A stretch of 64,000 bases of DNA from an uncultured archaeon (lineage in GTDB: Archaea; Thermoproteota; Nitrososphaeria_A; Caldarchaeales; Calditenuaceae): NCBI GenBank assembly GCA_937921685.1, contig CAKZUF010000007.1, positions 55,384 to 119,383 on the forward strand, given 5' to 3'. The notes beneath the pieces are model-generated. The model did no database searches. It saw nothing but the letters and a program-made list of their open reading frames with translations, and had not been told where the DNA came from. Below, piece by piece: positions 44,270-54,025 of the stretch; within the stretch, counting starts at the first letter, position 1, and every line of letters starts with the position of its first letter. The position numbers and the translations under genes were made by a program.

Positions 44270-45142
44270 ATGGTCAGGGCTGCTCTGTTGCTGAGGCCGA
44301 GGGAGTACAAGGCCAAGCGTGTAGAAGAGTTGAAGAACATGTTCAAGACCTACCGCGTGATAGGTTTTATAGACCTTTTCAGGTCTTCAGCAGATCTTAT
44401 CCACCTCTTCCGGAGCAAGTTTAGGGGACAGGCCGTCATCAAGGCGGCTAGAAAGACGCTGGTGATAAGGGCGGCTAAGGAGGCTGGGAGAGAAAAAATA
44501 GCGGAATATATAGAGAAGGAGAAAAGACCCTTCGCGCTCATCTTCACCAACATCAACCCCTTCATCCTGAAACTCGAGCTCGATAAAGGTAAAGTTCTCA
44601 CACCACCCAGGCCTGGTGAGACAGCGGATATAGACGTAGTTGTCCCGCCAATCAACACAGGTCTGCAGCCTGGCCCCATACTTTCAGAGTTCGGGAAACT
44701 CAAGATACCCACAAGAATAGAGGGTGGGACTATATGGATTGCCAGGGAAACTACCGTTGCCAGAAAGGGTGACGTGATCCAGCCAACCCTGGCATCACTC
44801 CTCGCAAAGCTAGAGATAGGCGCTGTTTATCGAAGCATAAACCTCCTTGTAGCTTTTGACGGTGACTTGATCATTCCTTCCGAGCTTTTAACCATTGATG
44901 TTGAAGGAACTAGAAGGATGCTCTCTGAGGCCCACTCCACGTCCCTAGCTCTTGCAATAGAGGTTGGATACGCGGCGCCAGAGACAATTGTTCCGATGAT
45001 AGTGAGGGCATACCGCTCAGCCATTAGCGTCTCTCTTGCAGCGGGCTACACAACCAAGGAAACTATAGAGATCCTGCTCGCAAAGGCCGTCTCAGAGGCA
45101 GCTACGCTTCAGAGGGTTGTAGATTCTCGATCAGTCTCTTGA
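44270..45142 (+). CDS. rpl10: 50S ribosomal protein L10 (uL10, acidic P0)
   Basis: KAKRVEELKNMFKTYRVIGFIDL N-terminus. The C-terminus lacks a long acidic tail. Confidence 0.8.
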   Translation: MVRAALLLRPREYKAKRVEELKNMFKTYRVIGFIDLFRSSADLIHLFRSKFRGQAVIKAARKTLVIRAAKEAGREKIAEYIEKEKRPFALIFTNINPFILKLELDKGKVLTPPRPGETADIDVVVPPINTGLQPGPILSEFGKLKIPTRIEGGTIWIARETTVARKGDVIQPTLASLLAKLEIGAVYRSINLLVAFDGDLIIPSELLTIDVEGTRRMLSEAHSTSLALAIEVGYAAPETIVPMIVRAYRSAISVSLAAGYTTKETIEILLAKAVSEAATLQRVVDSRSVS

Positions 45143-47897
45143 AATCGTTGTAGATTGTTCTGACATCTTTTTCCGCCACCTCGAAGACCACCACCTCGTC
45201 GTCGATATATCGTATCTTCCCGGCGCCGAGCCTTTCGGCTACGCTCCTCGGCGATAGGCCGTGTCTGGAGAGCTGGCGGTTAACTCCAGCAGCTATCAGC
45301 ATGCCTGTCTTTAGCCTACCGCTTATAAGCCCTGCGGCCGGCGAGTTATGCTTAACAGCCTCCCGAGCCATAGACGCGAAGTATGTAACATTTGTAACTG
45401 GTCTGAAGTCGAATATTAGCCTCGTACTCCCGAGTAACTCCTCTTTTTGGTAGCTTTTAGAGTAGAACCAGATCCTTGCTGCTAGGTCGGCTACTACGCG
45501 CTCAATTCTCTCGAGCTGTTGGGGTGAGGTAGAGGCTTGCTCAAATTCCTTCAATACAGTTTCCTGGTAGTATTCGATGAGCCTGCCGTATCCGAGTTTT
45601 AGCTGTCTAATCTCTTCCTCAACAGTCTCTAACCTGCTCTCCAGCTCTATAGTCGATTCACTCACGTAACGGTGGGCTGCTGGACCGGCAGCGTAGACCA
45701 GCCGAACCACGCCGTCTTGTATTCTCTCAACCTTCAGAATCTTTACGAATCCCACTTCTGCAGTGTTAGCGCAGTGCGTACCACCACAAGCCTCGGCATC
45801 CCACCCCTCTATCTCTACGACGCGTACCTGCCCGAGGGGAGCCTCACCGCCTTGGTAGAGAGTGAAGCCGTATCTGTCTTCAGCCACGCTTCTGGGCAGC
45901 CAAGATATCTTGACCGGCCTCCTCTCAGAGACAACTTCATTTGCAAGTCTCTCAATCTTTAAGATCTCATCTCTCGACAGTGGTGCGTGGTGGCTAATAT
46001 CGAGTCTGGCTGACTCAGCCTCCTTCTTCGCACCCATCTGCCAGGCATGCCTGCCCAACACCCTTCTCGCAGCGCCGATAAGGATGTGAGTAGCAGTGTG
46101 GTGTCTCATGACGCTTAGGCGGCGCCCATAGTCTATCTCCCCCCAAACCACCTCTCCCACAGGGGGCTGATCCCCCTCGATGAAATGGACAATCACACCA
46201 TCCACGATCTGGGTATCTGTGACCCGTGCTTCAAGACCACGCCACCTCAATACTCCGGTATCTCCTACTTGGCCACCACCCTCGGGATAGAATAGTGTCC
46301 GGTCAAGGACGACGATCTTGGGAGTGGATGCTAGGACTGTTGCGGTGAACTTAGCGGCGTATGGGTCGGAGTAGTATAGCTTTTCGGTTTTAGGGAGGTC
46401 TTTCGTAAGCTGTGCGGCCTCGACTAGTCGCTCATCCTCCTTCTCCTTTGCGGGAGATTCTATGTGTCTACTAATCATCCGCTCCTCAACCTCCTCCATG
46501 GCTGGAGCCTTGATTCCCAACTTCTTGGCGGTAGATACTACTAGGTCAGGTGTCAAACCCCTTTCCTCATATATTCTAGCGACGTATTCGGCATCTATTT
46601 CCCGCCCACTTTTGCTGACGGCTGCCAGCTCTCTCTCCAGTTGTGCAAGTCCGCGTACAATAGACTCGTTGAACTTTTTGACCTCATAGGTGATGAGCTC
46701 GAGTATTTCATCCCTCATCTCCAAGAGTCTTGGAAAGTCTCTTCCCCAATAGTCGATCTGAAGGGCCGCAAGCTCCGGAAGCATATCCTTCCTCCCAAGC
46801 AGTTCTAAGATTCTCTGAGTCTTCCTCACCAAGAGTCTGGCTAGGTATCCAACCTTCGAGTTGGAGGGCACAACTCCGTCTGCAAGTATAAATACTATCG
46901 ACTTGGTGTGGTCCAGTATCTTGTAAAACTGTTCTAGCCTCTCTAAGACTGGTTGAAGCCGCTCCAGATCCACCCCTGCTAAGGCGGCCGCCTTACGCCT
47001 CGCATCTGCTAGGCTTAGACTTGATGTGGGCTGAATCCAGGCCGAATATCTGGCATACCTTATGAAGAGCTCCTCATCAGGGTTCGGTATGTCGATCAGT
47101 TCAGAAACTCTGTCGAGTATCCCCGAGTAAATTACCTGGAAGGCGGATGGTGTTCCCTGCGCGAGCCAGGTAAACCGCTCTATTCCATATCCGGTATCGA
47201 CCGTCCTCACTGGGAGCTCCTCCAGCACACCATTTAGAGTCCTATAGTTCATGAAGACCAGCGTGGCAATCTCTAAGCCGCTGTGTATTACCTCGTAGCA
47301 GGGGCCTGCGTTCCCACCCCCCGCCCACACACCCTCCTTAAACACAGTATCCTCCTCCCTCAGTCCGAGACCCCCCATAAACTCTACACAAAGCTCCACC
47401 GTCCTGTCCTTCCAATACACCTCTCTATCGGGGAAGTTGAAGGCGTGGGCTCCACCCATCTCGAAGATCGTCAGGTGCCTCCCCAGCGTCGCCCCTACCT
47501 TATCTATATCAACCATCCTAATGCAGGGCTGGCTGACTACTAGAGGGTTTGCGGGCGGCTCGACTGAGCCGGAAGTCACGTGGGGTTGGAAGTCAACTAT
47601 GCTTGCCGAGACTAGGTAGAGGTCCTTCCTCCACCTCGGTACAACCGGGTAGGGGGCGATGACCTTATGACCCTTACTCTCAAAAAATCCTAGGAAAGCC
47701 CTCCTCATCTCTTGGAGGCTGTAGGGCCTGCTTACCGGAGGCGACCCTATGAAAGTGTAGGGCTCACAGGGGGCCTCTCCGCAGGTCTCCCTCTCAACGA
47801 TTGTCCAGAAGTATTTGCCGCATGATTTGCAGCGGCGCCTCCTATACCCCCTATTCGCGAAATAATCTATCGCGTAGTGCTCTACGCCGAACTCCAA
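45102..47897 (-). CDS. alaS: alanine--tRNA ligase
   Basis: 931 aa with an archaeal AlaRS N-terminus, HTATHIL editing-domain motif and C-terminal DHHA1-like domain. Confidence 0.9.
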   Translation of the reverse strand: MEFGVEHYAIDYFANRGYRRRRCKSCGKYFWTIVERETCGEAPCEPYTFIGSPPVSRPYSLQEMRRAFLGFFESKGHKVIAPYPVVPRWRKDLYLVSASIVDFQPHVTSGSVEPPANPLVVSQPCIRMVDIDKVGATLGRHLTIFEMGGAHAFNFPDREVYWKDRTVELCVEFMGGLGLREEDTVFKEGVWAGGGNAGPCYEVIHSGLEIATLVFMNYRTLNGVLEELPVRTVDTGYGIERFTWLAQGTPSAFQVIYSGILDRVSELIDIPNPDEELFIRYARYSAWIQPTSSLSLADARRKAAALAGVDLERLQPVLERLEQFYKILDHTKSIVFILADGVVPSNSKVGYLARLLVRKTQRILELLGRKDMLPELAALQIDYWGRDFPRLLEMRDEILELITYEVKKFNESIVRGLAQLERELAAVSKSGREIDAEYVARIYEERGLTPDLVVSTAKKLGIKAPAMEEVEERMISRHIESPAKEKEDERLVEAAQLTKDLPKTEKLYYSDPYAAKFTATVLASTPKIVVLDRTLFYPEGGGQVGDTGVLRWRGLEARVTDTQIVDGVIVHFIEGDQPPVGEVVWGEIDYGRRLSVMRHHTATHILIGAARRVLGRHAWQMGAKKEAESARLDISHHAPLSRDEILKIERLANEVVSERRPVKISWLPRSVAEDRYGFTLYQGGEAPLGQVRVVEIEGWDAEACGGTHCANTAEVGFVKILKVERIQDGVVRLVYAAGPAAHRYVSESTIELESRLETVEEEIRQLKLGYGRLIEYYQETVLKEFEQASTSPQQLERIERVVADLAARIWFYSKSYQKEELLGSTRLIFDFRPVTNVTYFASMAREAVKHNSPAAGLISGRLKTGMLIAAGVNRQLSRHGLSPRSVAERLGAGKIRYIDDEVVVFEVAEKDVRTIYNDFKRLIENLQPSEA

Positions 47898-50040: not shown

Positions 50041-50076
50041 GCCGATCTTGTCTCAGGGGGTATGACTATATAATAG

Positions 50077-50805
50077 TTGAATCCATATTATAATAGCGTG
50101 GGCGTTTCAGGGGGCGGCGGTGAAGGGCTATACACAGAGGTTATCTATGACGAGGAGCGGTGGAGTATTCTTTGGGAGAAGAGGGCTGCAGCTCTAAGGA
50201 TCATGGAGGCCCTCTTGAGGGCTGGGATCGACTCGATAGTTTACGGCAGCGTGGCTCGGGGAGACGTACACAGGTTAAGTGATGTTGAGGTCTACATACC
50301 GAGACCTGTCAGCCCTGTCCTCGCCGAGACTATTATTGAACGTGAGTTTGGAGGGTGGATTAAGCGCGAAGTTGTCCAAGCAACCCCTAGCTACGTGCCT
50401 AAAGGCTACATCTACATAGACGAGCTATCGATAGTCTCTTTTCCGCTGGCTGAGACGTTGAAGAGTGAGGCGGTTTTCTATGATATAGCGGGGAAGCTCA
50501 ACCTCGATGGTGTAAGGAGGAGGGATAGGGTTGCGGGCATGAATAAGGCGCTAAAAGTAGTAATCCCCACCAGCTATGGCCACTCAGAATTCCCCGCGGA
50601 GAAGGACCCGGAGCTCGCCGCAAATCTGATTGGTGTCGACCCCCTCGACCTCAGAAAGAGGATTAACGTATTGGTGCGGAGGAGGGAGCATGGCAAGACA
50701 GGGGTCTATAGTAAAATCGTTTTAGAAGAGGGGGAAAGCTTCTCCAGCGTCCTCAACCAGCTCTTGGACAGGAACCCTCGCATTAGGAGGCGGATACATA
50801 GTTGA
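50077..50805 (+). CDS. Pol-beta-superfamily nucleotidyltransferase domain protein (KNTase-like size)
   Basis: YGSVARGDVHRLSDVEV matches the GS-x(9-13)-D-x-[DE] NTase motif. 242 aa with a helical C-terminal domain. Its stop overlaps the pelota start. Confidence 0.55.
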   Translation: MNPYYNSVGVSGGGGEGLYTEVIYDEERWSILWEKRAAALRIMEALLRAGIDSIVYGSVARGDVHRLSDVEVYIPRPVSPVLAETIIEREFGGWIKREVVQATPSYVPKGYIYIDELSIVSFPLAETLKSEAVFYDIAGKLNLDGVRRRDRVAGMNKALKVVIPTSYGHSEFPAEKDPELAANLIGVDPLDLRKRINVLVRRREHGKTGVYSKIVLEEGESFSSVLNQLLDRNPRIRRRIHS

Positions 50806-51863
50806 AGCTTCTAGCGGTGGATAAGCTGAGAGGCTGGGCTAGGCTCGCCATCACAAACAATATGGACCTCGTGAACCTTTATCGCCTCGTAAGGCCCGGC
50901 GACGTCGTCTACCAAGAGACAAGCAGGGAGGTCAAGAAGGAGAGGGCGTCAGGAGAGGTTGACAGCCAACGCGTCAGCCTCAAGGTCGGTATAGCTGTTG
51001 AGAAGAAGTCGGCAGACCCCTTGATGAAAAGGATAAGGTTTCAGGGAAAGATAGTCTTTACAGACAGGGACCTAGATATTCTGAAGAAATATCATACAAT
51101 TCAGGTCGGTAGAGGGGATGTTATTGAGATTGAAAGTCGTGAGAGGCTCCCCTATCTTCTAAGGCTTGGGGAGGAGGGGGAGGGGAGGGTGGAGGAGCTG
51201 GTCGCTATCTCTGGCGATGACGAGGAGTTGGCAGTAGTGAAGATAGATGTTGATGGTATTAAAGTGTTGAAGACTTGGAAAGTCGATGGGGGGTCGAAGC
51301 GTCTCGGCTATGATGTGGAGGCGCATCGCGAGAGTGTGTACGATGAGCTGGTGCAGCAGCTCAAGGAACTGACCTCGAAATCCAAGCCGAAGCTAGTGCT
51401 CATGGGGACTGCTATCCATGCCGACATAATAGCGTCTGAAATAAAGAACCGAGATGTCAGGATTTCCAACTTAATTGCTAGAAAGATACCGGTAAACATT
51501 GGAGGGGTTGACGGAATCCGGGAAGCTCTTAGGCGTGGCGTCTTAGGGGAGGAGCTGAAGCCTTTAGCCGACGCTATTCAGGTCGAGAAGGCGATGAGAG
51601 CGATACTAAAGCATCCTGAACACATTCATTTAGGTTTAGAAGAGGTTGCAAGGGCTTGTAGGACTTCGCGCGGAGCCCTTGTCCTCGCGACCGAGGACTT
51701 CGTCTGGGAGAACTTGGATAATGCTCTTTTGGATGAGATTCTATCTAGGGCTGAAAGAGGGGTAATCAAGTTTAGGGCCGTACTCTCGGATACTGAGGCG
51801 TCGGACAAGATAAATTCTCTGGGTGGCATAATATGTATTGAAAAGAAAATACTGGAAGTGTGA
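50802..51863 (+). CDS. pelA: Pelota/Dom34 mRNA surveillance factor (aPelota)
   Basis: MKLLAVDKLRGWARLAITNNMDLVNLYRLVRPGDVV matches the archaeal Pelota N-terminus, with an eRF1-like central and C-terminal domain. Confidence 0.85.
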   Translation: MKLLAVDKLRGWARLAITNNMDLVNLYRLVRPGDVVYQETSREVKKERASGEVDSQRVSLKVGIAVEKKSADPLMKRIRFQGKIVFTDRDLDILKKYHTIQVGRGDVIEIESRERLPYLLRLGEEGEGRVEELVAISGDDEELAVVKIDVDGIKVLKTWKVDGGSKRLGYDVEAHRESVYDELVQQLKELTSKSKPKLVLMGTAIHADIIASEIKNRDVRISNLIARKIPVNIGGVDGIREALRRGVLGEELKPLADAIQVEKAMRAILKHPEHIHLGLEEVARACRTSRGALVLATEDFVWENLDNALLDEILSRAERGVIKFRAVLSDTEASDKINSLGGIICIEKKILEV

Positions 51864-51876
51864 CTGGAGTGTTAAA

Positions 51877-53043
51877 TTAATGGTGTTTCAGCTTCTCCAT
51901 TGTTAGCACCTTGACTCCTGGTTTGAACGACAAATTTTCTCCTAGCCTCGCCCCGATCAAGTAGACCTCTCCACCAGTCGAGGATGCAATATCGATGAGT
52001 CTCTGAGTGACGACCCCGTCGAATAGGACGTATTTATAGTCCCTCGATTCTGAAAGCTGCTGGGCCAACTCGCTAACAGGCTTACGCCATAGCTCGTTGA
52101 ATCCGTTGTCGAAGGCAACTGACATTAATGTCCCCTCAATCTCCCCGATATACCGAGCCAGCTTGTCTGAGAACTCTGCAGGGATGGGCTCAGCCGCCTG
52201 CACAGGCTCCGCCCTAATTCTCCTTAACGCCTCTCCTAGGGGTTGTGCATCCCTCAGTGCGTCTTCAACCTCCTTTGCGTTGAGTTCTTCAACTTCTTTC
52301 CCATAAGGGGCTCGAGCCACCAAGTCTATCTTTATTGACTGTGCCAGCTCTCTCAGCACCATATCTCCTCCCCTGTCTCCGTCGAGGAAAGCTATGACCC
52401 GCTTCTTCTTTGCTAGGAGGTCTTGTAGGGTCGGGGGTATCTTGACACCCCCAACCGCGATAACATTTCTGTAGCCGTAGCGCATGAGGTTGATTATATC
52501 AGCCCGCCCCTCCACCACTATAACCTCTTCAGAGCTCAACGCCTCGGGGCCCGCCTCAATCTTTTCCGGCCCAATTTCAACAACCTTGGCCTTCAGCACC
52601 GACTCTTCCAACTCCCTCAATATCTCGTCGTCCTCTGGAATCTTTTTCCGCTCCCACTCGTAGAGAATCGCCCTCGCACGTTCCACTATTTTCTTTCTCT
52701 TCTCTGAGCGGAGGTCTTCTATCTTCTCAATAGTGACCTTGGCAGGGTATGGTCCAACCCTGTCCAGAGACTCTATCATTGCTGCTATGAGTGCTGTGTA
52801 GAACCTGTCTAGGCCGCTGGGTATGGTGATCTTACCGATGGTCTTACCTCCCTGAACCTGTAGTGAGACATCGATACGTCCTATCCGCCCGGCCCTCTGT
52901 AACTCTCTCAAGTCTAATTCTGAGCTGAATATCCCCTCAGTCTGCCCAAATGTTGCGCCAATTACGTCGTTACGGTCGACGATCCCGTCAACCTCAATCT
53001 TAACCTCAATCACATATTTAGTAGCAACGGCTGGAGTAGCCAT
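51877..53043 (-). CDS. dnaG: archaeal DnaG-type primase (TOPRIM)
   Basis: MATPAVATKYVIEVKIEVDGIVDRNDVIGATFGQTEGIF N-terminus and the TOPRIM VVEGRADIINL...FLDGDRGGD. An internal ATG at 53043 was chosen over the track's longer ORF. Confidence 0.8.
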   Translation of the reverse strand: MATPAVATKYVIEVKIEVDGIVDRNDVIGATFGQTEGIFSSELDLRELQRAGRIGRIDVSLQVQGGKTIGKITIPSGLDRFYTALIAAMIESLDRVGPYPAKVTIEKIEDLRSEKRKKIVERARAILYEWERKKIPEDDEILRELEESVLKAKVVEIGPEKIEAGPEALSSEEVIVVEGRADIINLMRYGYRNVIAVGGVKIPPTLQDLLAKKKRVIAFLDGDRGGDMVLRELAQSIKIDLVARAPYGKEVEELNAKEVEDALRDAQPLGEALRRIRAEPVQAAEPIPAEFSDKLARYIGEIEGTLMSVAFDNGFNELWRKPVSELAQQLSESRDYKYVLFDGVVTQRLIDIASSTGGEVYLIGARLGENLSFKPGVKVLTMEKLKHH

Positions 53044-53155
53044 GTTAATACACCCGTCTTTCTCTCTCCATCTATGTTTGGGGGGTTGGTATTTAAATGA
53101 TACCGAGTCTACAGGGTCATCATTATCTACTCGAGGGCATGGAAGGAGGTGGTGT

Positions 53156-54025
53156 ATGACGCCTCCGATTGATGAGACGAGTGCAGAGTGGGTTGCGACA
53201 GTCATTCCGCCAAGACGGTCAGGCTCGCGGAAAGGAGAGAACGGCGTAGTCATTGTTGTGGGTGGAAGTCGGCTGTATCATGGTGCGCCATTCTTGACGG
53301 CCATGGCCGCGATGAGGTCGGGTGTCGACCTAGTCTATCTCTTTGTGCCGGAGAAGATTTCGGTTTCTATAAGAGCACTGTCGCCAAGCCTAATCGTAAA
53401 CCCGCTCACAGACGTTAAACTGACTGCGCGGATCAGCGAGCAAATAGTAAAGAACTCTCCGCAAGCCCACGCAGCGGCGATAGGACCGGGCCTGTCTGTG
53501 GCTAGGGAGTCTGCACTGACTAAACTGCTGAACGGGCTCTTGGAGAAAGGAATAAAGCTCGTTCTGGACGCCTCGGCGCTCCAACCTTACGTCCTCAACA
53601 CAATAGGTGGCCGAGATGTCGTTCTCACCCCTCATGCCGGAGAGTTTGTGAGGCTCTTTGGGACGCCGCCAGGAAACTCTTTAGAGGATAGGTGCAGGAC
53701 CGCAAAGGAGATGGCCAAGAGGCATGGGGTAGTAATCCTGCTGAAGGGGGAGGTTGACGTCATAACAGACGGCGATAGGGTGATGGCGAATAGGACGGGA
53801 ACCTGTGCAATGACTGTGGGGGGAACAGGGGACGTATTGACTGGGCTTGTCGCGGGCCTTGTTGCCAAGGGTGTTGCTGGTTTTGAGGCTGCATCGGCTG
53901 CAGCATACATCAATGGGTTGTGCGGGGAGATGGCTGCGGCGGAGCTCGGGCTTCACATTCTACCCACAGACCTCATAGAAAAGATTCCACAAGTGATGAA
54001 GAAATTCGACAAAATCGTCAGCTAA
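53156..54025 (+). CDS. nnrD: ADP-dependent NAD(P)H-hydrate dehydratase (YjeF C-terminal domain)
   Basis: [31 protein letters not shown]...[11 protein letters not shown] at 53156 is preceded by a GGAGG-like sequence. Confidence 0.8.

Follow-up and report, generated by a model that had tools for sequence, protein, structure and literature searches.

What does a nucleotidyltransferase do in the company of the ribosome-rescue factor Pelota? This question is raised by a stretch of DNA from an uncultured archaeon of the Calditenuaceae (Caldarchaeales), 64,000 nucleotides of contig CAKZUF010000007.1 that we refer to as the window, where the gene for a nucleotidyltransferase (NTase) of the Pol-beta type runs directly into the gene for Pelota, the Dom34 homologue. 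To our knowledge, rescue by archaeal Pelota/Dom34 is described only in terms of Pelota itself, aEF1-alpha and ABCE1, and we know of no account of the later fate of the released mRNA and tRNA. Here we find that the NTase belongs to a widespread and strongly conserved enzyme family, which has been kept beside pelota and the gene of a radical S-adenosylmethionine (SAM) enzyme since before the TACK/Asgard split. The literature searched holds nothing on an NTase linked to archaeal Pelota, on this radical-SAM family or on the context of DUF1122 and DUF8061, and offers a bacterial analogy only. We regard the finding as a solid, testable lead and not as a demonstrated new mechanism.

The gene pair and its junction

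The longest form of the NTase open reading frame (ORF) occupies 50077..50805 (+) and starts with TTG at 50077, which gives the 242 residues stated in a preliminary description of the locus. This length stands for the ORF but not for the protein, which probably starts at GTG 50098 and has 235 residues (50098..50805, +), since 235 is the modal length of the family and this is the annotated start of the 88%-identical HR02 protein P0002. The gene downstream (50802..51863, +; 353 residues) had been taken for that of Pelota, and the assignment is confirmed. From end to end, the ORF can be aligned to the Pelota structures from P. furiosus, A. pernix, S. solfataricus and A. fulgidus: its residues 13-346 are aligned to residues 13-351 of P. 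furiosus Pelota (3j15; E 2.7e-19), and 3wxm, 3obw, 3oby and the Dom34 structure 3mca are also matched. Pfam eRF1_1 is found with 5e-14, and TIGR00111 aligns over residues 19-347 with 67.5 bits, below its cut-off of 177.65 bits. These alignments identify the ORF as an archaeal Pelota (aPelota), a full-length three-domain member of the aeRF1 superfamily.

The two genes share four nucleotides, TTGA at 50802..50805 (+), in which the TTG start codon of pelota runs into the TGA stop codon of the NTase gene (...cat agT TGA agc). The NTase thus indeed ends inside the start region of pelota, as had been noticed; the overlap itself had been given as ATGA, a form that is seen only in some close relatives. 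The four-nucleotide overlap is present in all five closest genomes fetched, as TTGA in loci L001 and L002 and as ATGA in L003, L004 and L005. The motif AGGAGG at 50785..50790 (+), 11 nt 5' of the Pelota TTG, falls inside the codons for conserved C-terminal arginines of the NTase and presumably acts as a Shine-Dalgarno site; a purine-rich motif of the AGGAG type lies at the equivalent place in L001-L005. The stop/start overlap supports the translational coupling proposed before and, as far as can be judged from the sequence, the NTase and Pelota genes form a real two-gene operon in the window.

Upstream of the pair, the TATA-box-like element TATATAAT (50067..50074, no strand assigned) lies ~27 nt from the NTase GTG (50098) and ~27 nt from the ATG of a divergent acylphosphatase gene (50040, -). 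This spacing fits the standard archaeal distance between TATA box and start, so TATATAAT may be a shared bidirectional promoter that gives two leaderless mRNAs.

The nucleotidyltransferase family

The NTase carries GSVARGDVHRLSDVEV at residues 57-72, and VYGSVARGDVHRLSDVEVYIP is a textbook Pol-beta signature, in which G57-S58 is followed after ten residues by D69-V-E71-V (G57-S58-x10-D69-V-E71-V; 50245..50292, +). Both superfamily elements, hG[GS] and [DE]h[DE]h, are therefore present, with the metal strand ten residues after S58, inside the 9-13 expected of the superfamily. The earlier assignment to the Pol-beta type is thus borne out. In the 39-sequence alignment 22 residues are invariant over the entire length, comprising the GSxARGD...SD motif, T103, P104, K109, F134, G139, R151, G154, K157, P164, G168, R195, R202, G206 and G209, while H169 and E171 are nearly invariant. 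Among the 94 aligned sequences G57, S58, A60, R61, G62, D63, S68 and D69 do not vary, and Y-G57-S58 is kept in both sets. Outside the clade of the window all sequences have D at position 71, within it either D or E occurs, and every family-conserved residue is kept in that clade.

One database entry is identical to the window protein (100%), and a homology search with this protein alone returns 109 full-length relatives of ~235 residues from Caldarchaeales/Aigarchaeota, other Nitrososphaeria, Bathyarchaeia, Acidilobus and Promethearchaeota. A profile search extends the family to 1953 clusters (90% identity), including the cultured Hyperthermus butylicus, Pyrolobus fumarii and Pyrodictium species; the names of the relatives are generic, e.g. 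‘nucleotidyltransferase domain-containing protein’. A search with a hidden Markov model (HMM) over 1.84 billion cluster representatives (50% identity) gives 126 clusters at E <= 1e-30, the full-length ones of ~220-245 residues, and none of the 126 shows a domain fusion. The identical entry, the more than 100 full-length homologues and the 22 invariant residues place the ORF beyond chance.

Known domain models reach the family only in part. Pfam NTP_transf_2 (PF01909), a check named in the preliminary description, scores 17.4 bits on the window protein (E 0.006, residues 41-75) and does not reach its cut-off of 21 bits, but it matches 37/39 family members at E <= 0.01 (best E 6e-11). Hence the family is a divergent relative of NTP_transf_2, although the window protein itself stays below threshold. 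Beyond the N-terminal motif Pfam has no match in any family member, NCBIfam has no family for the window protein, and phmmer finds no match for it among the sequences of the PDB. With the family profile, only minimal NTases (MNTs) are found in the PDB and only over ~50 residues (1wot, E 8.5e-6; also 2rff, Cmr1-MntA and MNT antitoxins). We conclude that the NTase represents a compact, discrete, stand-alone and undescribed family of the Pol-beta superfamily in Thermoproteota (TACK) and Asgard archaea, and this conclusion is solid. We note that one locus with the NTase and radical-SAM genes (L070) lies in a bin labelled Geoglobus sp. (Archaeoglobi, Euryarchaeota), which is either an occurrence outside TACK/Asgard or a mis-binned contig.

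The AlphaFold model of the NTase has a predicted local distance difference test score (pLDDT) of 90.9 and shows the alpha-beta-alpha-beta-alpha-beta palm fold. The C-terminal module (residues 139-242; 50491..50802, +) is composed of a beta-hairpin with G168-H169-x-E171, a helix pair similar to a helix-turn-helix (HTH) (LIGVDPLDLRKRINVLVRRRE), a strand and two terminal helices, with a GKTG loop between the helix pair and the terminal helices. The description of this part as simply helical is thus to be corrected. The module matches no solved fold; it is net basic, with the positive charge of the protein concentrated in the C-terminal half, and the isoelectric point and charge give a weak hint of nucleic-acid binding. 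The GS loop and the two metal carboxylates (position 71 being D or E) are conserved, so the NTase is most likely enzymatically active. As for the third carboxylate, E131, E171 and D63 are invariant or near-invariant candidates.

The structural neighbours of the NTase are RNA NTases, among which the RNA-tailing enzymes rank consistently but weakly (TM <= 0.3). Cid1, TUT1/4/7, GLD-2, Trf4 of TRAMP, CutA and Tailor all stay at these low scores. Unlike enzymes of the Cid1 type, the NTase is devoid of the PAP-associated/nucleotide-recognition domain and its C-terminal module is unrelated to theirs; sequence searches of the PDB give no similarity to them, and a marginal match to Pfam MTPAP-like_central appears in 2/39 members (E 0.0039).

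Several known enzymes were considered as identities of the NTase and rejected. It was previously labelled KNTase-like, and it does share the Pol-beta palm and a similar overall size with kanamycin NTase (ANT(4')) and other antibiotic NTases; the helical substrate-binding domain KNTase_C is absent, however, and the label is dropped. A poly(A) polymerase (PAP) or terminal uridylyltransferase (TUTase) of the Cid1 family should have a PAP-associated domain (PF03828) with the nucleotide-recognition motif, which is not found. A class I archaeal CCA-adding enzyme has a head-neck-body-tail architecture of ~400-450 residues, and the NTase does not have it. With MNTs (MNT/MntA; 1wot, 2rff) the protein shares an N-terminal helix and GSxARGD...SDxD, and these are its best sequence matches. 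Nevertheless it is about twice as long, as the preliminary description had recognized in calling it too long for a minimal MNT, and its conserved extension of ~165 residues is absent in MNTs. A type VII toxin-antitoxin MntA of the MntA-HepT pair is excluded by the length (235 versus ~100-140 residues), by the score of 16.5 bits with the NCBIfam MntA model against a cut-off of 60 bits, and by the absence of a HEPN neighbour. A motif in the C-terminus that resembles Rx4-6H of HEPN proteins (RRREH) was ruled out, the histidine being not conserved in the family.

The same observations bear on the idea that the gene is a toxin-antitoxin or anti-phage NTase, of the MNT-HEPN type VII, CBASS (CD-NTase) or AbiE-like kind, which adjoins pelota by chance. 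In its favour PADLOC reports weak matches to PDC-S09 and PDC-M05A (E 1e-3 to 1e-6). These are at the level of the motif only, and PADLOC assigns the NTase to no defence system. In 93 loci none of the neighbouring genes, whether called or annotated by Pfam, encodes a HEPN protein, as had been noted for the window, and no effector or AbiEi partner is found in these loci either. A CBASS cyclase is rejected as an identity, as no CD-NTase model matches and no effector accompanies the gene. In contrast to MNTs the NTase is neither mobile nor patchy: it is a stand-alone gene, conserved over whole archaeal classes at a fixed place among housekeeping genes. We therefore treat the explanation by defence, and with it the toxin-like and CD-NTase readings proposed earlier, as effectively refuted.

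Modification of proteins is to be weighed more carefully. The NTase might be a protein nucleotidylyltransferase (an AMPylase or uridylylase similar to MntA or GlnD), with Pelota, aEF1-alpha, a ribosomal protein or the PII-like protein CutA1 as the target. The MNT matches given above speak for it, and UniRef automatically names cultured members ‘protein adenylyltransferase’. The similarity to MNTs is confined to the catalytic motif, with the MntA score far below its cut-off; there is no HEPN or other toxin partner, and the structural neighbours are enzymes acting on RNA. An additional argument is supplied by the gene of CutA1, which lies directly upstream of the NTase and on the same strand in Asgard archaea and Bathyarchaeia (L088:1273-1581, L092:4973-5287, L093:4909-5226, L081:3817-4131) with an overlap of the two genes in L088. 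As CutA1 adopts a PII-like fold and the regulator of PII proteins, GlnD, is itself a Pol-beta NTase, CutA1 could be a substrate or a regulator of the NTase. It is, however, absent from the window and from most loci, and on balance we find a protein target quite unlikely.

Surroundings of the gene across archaea

Conservation of the adjacency had been set beforehand as the test of a relation between the NTase and Pelota. We scanned one genome per GTDB species, kept the best 80 loci of more than 587 NTase relatives, located Pelota by an iterated Pelota HMM and counted the genes as linked when they lie within 4 kb. By this measure, Pelota is linked to the NTase in 61/80 species-level loci. A count of 69/80 from clustering of ORFs was set aside because some of the members are antisense ORFs; in this all-against-all clustering Pelota is also the commonest neighbour of the NTase. 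In nine further NTase-seeded loci Pelota is found within 6 kb in 6/9, including Lokiarchaeia and Hyperthermus, and is absent from Pyrolobus and two metagenomic contigs. It flanks the NTase in Lokiarchaeia, Odinarchaeia, Jordarchaeia, Sulfolobales and Desulfurococcales as well, so that the linkage reaches the Asgard lineages. The earlier proposal was to fall if the adjacency were conserved in no related genome and the protein matched a well-characterised family unrelated to translation; neither is the case, for the adjacency is widely conserved and the NTase matches no characterised family.

The orientation of the genes varies. Pelota is downstream and co-directional in 11 loci (Calditenuaceae and relatives), divergent in 15 (Wolframiiraptor and other Caldarchaeales) and convergent in 35 (Bathyarchaeia, Jordarchaeia, Desulfurococcales). 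In 7/11 co-directional loci the two genes overlap or are at most ~30 nt apart, and in L006, L007 and L009 a transporter gene of ~1.3 kb separates them; many convergent loci have a gap of only 3-14 bp. In several Bathyarchaeia, the gene of the TATA-binding protein is seen between NTase and Pelota (L026:3964-4527, L031:4690-5259, L064:4688-5257, L079, L080 (-)).

Annotation of the 93 loci reveals a larger unit around the pair. Its order is TtuA/NcsA-like PP-loop ATPase (-), M50 protease (-), CutA1 (+), NTase (+), DUF1122 in Sulfolobales, radical SAM (+), Pelota (-), RimI-like GNAT (+), PolB (+) and DnaG (-). All or almost all of the block is present in Sulfolobus sp. S-194 (L091), Hyperthermus (L086), a Bathyarchaeia genome (L093) and Odinarchaeia (L092), and in a variant from Lokiarchaeia (L081) the NTase, radical SAM, GNAT and Pelota are all on one strand. 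This block of ~9 genes is ancient and conserved across TACK and Asgard archaea. Mixed-function synteny of such depth is unusual, and it is not described in the literature searched. Since Sulfolobales, to which genetically tractable Sulfolobus species are related, have the intact cluster, the question of its function can be tested directly. A gene for RtcB is located ~5 kb upstream in the Lokiarchaeia locus L081.

The window retains only the NTase, Pelota and DnaG of the block (50077-53253); radical SAM, M50, CutA1, TtuA, GNAT and PolB are not found within its 64 kb. The order in the window (NTase->, Pelota->, <-DnaG) can be derived from the block in two steps, namely loss or relocation of radical SAM, GNAT and PolB and inversion of pelota. 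As a lineage, the Calditenuaceae have no radical-SAM, GNAT or PolB gene at the locus. Sister lineages have the divergent order DnaG->, <-Pelota, NTase->, which is one single-gene inversion away from the window. Hence, the NTase-Pelota operon of the Calditenuaceae is a derived, lineage-specific state of a far older linkage.

The usual same-strand partner of the NTase is the radical-SAM gene (L086:6748-7797, L081:5705-6856, L091:6001-7056, L093:6001-7086), which overlaps or abuts it (L081, L092) or follows a few nt downstream. The protein has ~350 residues with CX3CX2C, the conserved motifs ITGGDPL, HIHLYT, GLDEIRFHP and NxNELE, and often a DUF8061 tail. None of the nearest curated models (HxsC, MoaA, PFL-AE, NrdG) comes close to its cut-off, and by these comparisons the protein represents an uncharacterised family that is widespread in Asgard and TACK archaea. 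In 3/3 loci seeded with the radical-SAM gene the NTase is directly upstream and Pelota is convergent directly downstream. In several Thermoprotei the 3' ends of the radical-SAM and pelota genes overlap by 8-45 nt (L086:7753-7797, L090:8154-8177, L091:7033-7056, L085:1087-1094). Locus L085 has these two genes tail to tail and the NTase 3 kb off; there the radical-SAM/pelota pair has moved away from the NTase together.

This arrangement suggests that the NTase might work outside ribosome rescue, in partnership with the radical-SAM enzyme and, in the loci that have them, CutA1 or DUF1122, for example in modification of a cofactor, a metabolite or a lipid. Pelota would then be near the NTase through synteny alone, and compaction of the genome after a single-gene inversion would have produced the Calditenuaceae operon by accident. 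The two genes lie on the same strand and overlap or abut in Lokiarchaeia, Odinarchaeia, Hyperthermus, Pyrolobus, the Bathyarchaeia genome and others; the DUF1122 gene of Sulfolobales sits between them on the same strand; and they persist together without Pelota in Pyrolobus (L087) and in L032, L040, L050, L051, L069 and L070. In most cases the opposite strand encodes Pelota, inserts of varying kind separate it from the NTase, and the block unites genes of mixed function. The nearest families of the radical-SAM protein, the PFL/NrdG activases, MoaA and HxsC, are not RNA enzymes. On the other hand, Bathyarchaeia and Caldarchaeales, including the window, have NTase and Pelota without radical SAM at the locus, and they keep the NTase against Pelota through at least two changes of orientation, one of which gave a coupled operon. 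The radical-SAM gene, for its part, remains tail to tail with pelota even where the NTase has moved, and several members of the block are related to translation (TtuA/NcsA, the RimI-like GNAT, Pelota, and DnaG as an exosome subunit in Sulfolobus). We consider a role of the NTase/radical-SAM pair outside rescue as possible, though somewhat doubtful. Even if Pelota is a mere neighbour, the two enzymes make up a new conserved module in the archaea closest to eukaryotes.

A proposed role on RNA of the translation apparatus

We suggest, with a probability of roughly 40%, that the NTase transfers a nucleoside monophosphate (NMP) onto RNA of the translation apparatus, its tie to Pelota being drawn from the genomic context. 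In the proposed reaction the G57-S58 loop and the carboxylates D69/E71 would bind Mg-NTP, with the third carboxylate perhaps provided by E131 or E171. The acceptor of the NMP would be a hydroxyl group within the translation apparatus, most probably on RNA, at the 3' end or elsewhere, tRNA being the first candidate; an mRNA 3' end or a modification intermediate common with the radical-SAM enzyme might be used alternatively. The basic HTH-like C-terminal module would serve as a clamp for the substrate. Where the radical-SAM partner is present, it probably acts on the same substrate, and the clade of the window, which has no adjacent radical SAM, should perform the same chemistry since it keeps all family-invariant residues. 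Co-expression with Pelota would give the NTase a part in clearing up the RNAs set free from stalled ribosomes.

An RNA target is favoured because of the structural ranking of the RNA-tailing enzymes, the translation-related neighbourhood and a bacterial precedent. The members of the block related to translation or RNA are TtuA/NcsA (tRNA thiolation), the RimI/Ard1-like acetyltransferase, Pelota and DnaG, and DnaG is an exosome subunit in Sulfolobus. The adjacency of NTase and Pelota persists over classes and two phyla through several orientation changes, and in Calditenuaceae selection has tolerated or favoured strict co-translation of the two. The precedent is the bacterial RFH(PrfH)-RtcB system, in which a Pol-beta NTase is proposed to repair damaged ends of tRNA or other RNA (Burroughs and Aravind 2019, PMC6514570). 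The RFH(PrfH)-RtcB/RlaP NTases are the closest conceptual precedent, as there, too, an uncharacterised Pol-beta NTase is linked to a rescue factor of the release-factor superfamily. They differ in that the system is bacterial, its rescue factor is a homologue of bacterial release factors and not Pelota, and its partner is the RtcB ligase; the likeness to the archaeal NTase is at the superfamily level, and the conserved block has no RNA ligase.

Several observations weigh against this proposal. Pelota is encoded on the strand opposite to the NTase in 50/61 linked loci; unrelated genes (TATA-binding protein, a PIN toxin-antitoxin pair, MntP, transporters) are inserted between them in many genomes; and some Bathyarchaeia retain M50-NTase-DnaG without Pelota. 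With PolB and a membrane protease also among the genes of the block, the proximity of NTase and Pelota could be a slowly decaying ancestral synteny. As regards the enzyme, the canonical strand does not supply the third catalytic carboxylate, no acidic residue being conserved in the strand that follows helix 3 (residues 96-101). The NTase contains no PAP-associated or tRNA-binding domain, its nearest relatives by sequence are the MNTs, some of which AMPylate proteins, and the literature searched holds no experiment or publication on the family. Taken together, the mostly opposite strands, the inserted genes and the larger housekeeping block around both mean that the operon by itself overstates the case for a specific functional link between the NTase and Pelota.

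A broader version of the proposal joins all three proteins. The NTase, the COG2108-like radical-SAM enzyme and Pelota might constitute an undescribed pathway of translation quality control or of RNA repair or modification, ancestral to TACK/Asgard, in which the NTase would tail, tag or repair the RNA (tRNA or truncated mRNA) from ribosomes split by Pelota. As a whole we hold this version to be unlikely. If true, it would be an archaeal counterpart of the eukaryotic steps of the TRAMP or CCA-repair type and of the bacterial PrfH-RtcB-NTase system.

Last, we describe other genes in the window. The ribosomal stalk genes P0/L10 (44270..45142, +) and P1 (47952..48266, -) flank alanyl-tRNA synthetase (45102..47897, -), ~2-6 kb upstream of the NTase-pelota pair, with genes of V-ATPase G-like and C/d subunits in between; we see no evidence that they are more than context. 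On the other side, the DnaG-type Toprim protein, a member of the block, is encoded at 51877..53043 (-) and is convergent with Pelota. It contains Toprim domains and shares 50% identity with DnaG of locus L093 over 53031..51898. The 458-residue ORF that extends to 53253 is probably over-called; the likely start is M71 at 53043, since homologues begin with MA(A/T)PAVATKY (MAAPAVATKY in L001), which corresponds to M71. With this start, the apparent overlap of 210 bp with the NAD(P)HX-dehydratase ORF (53042-54025, +), whose Carb_kinase domain starts only from residue 70, vanishes.

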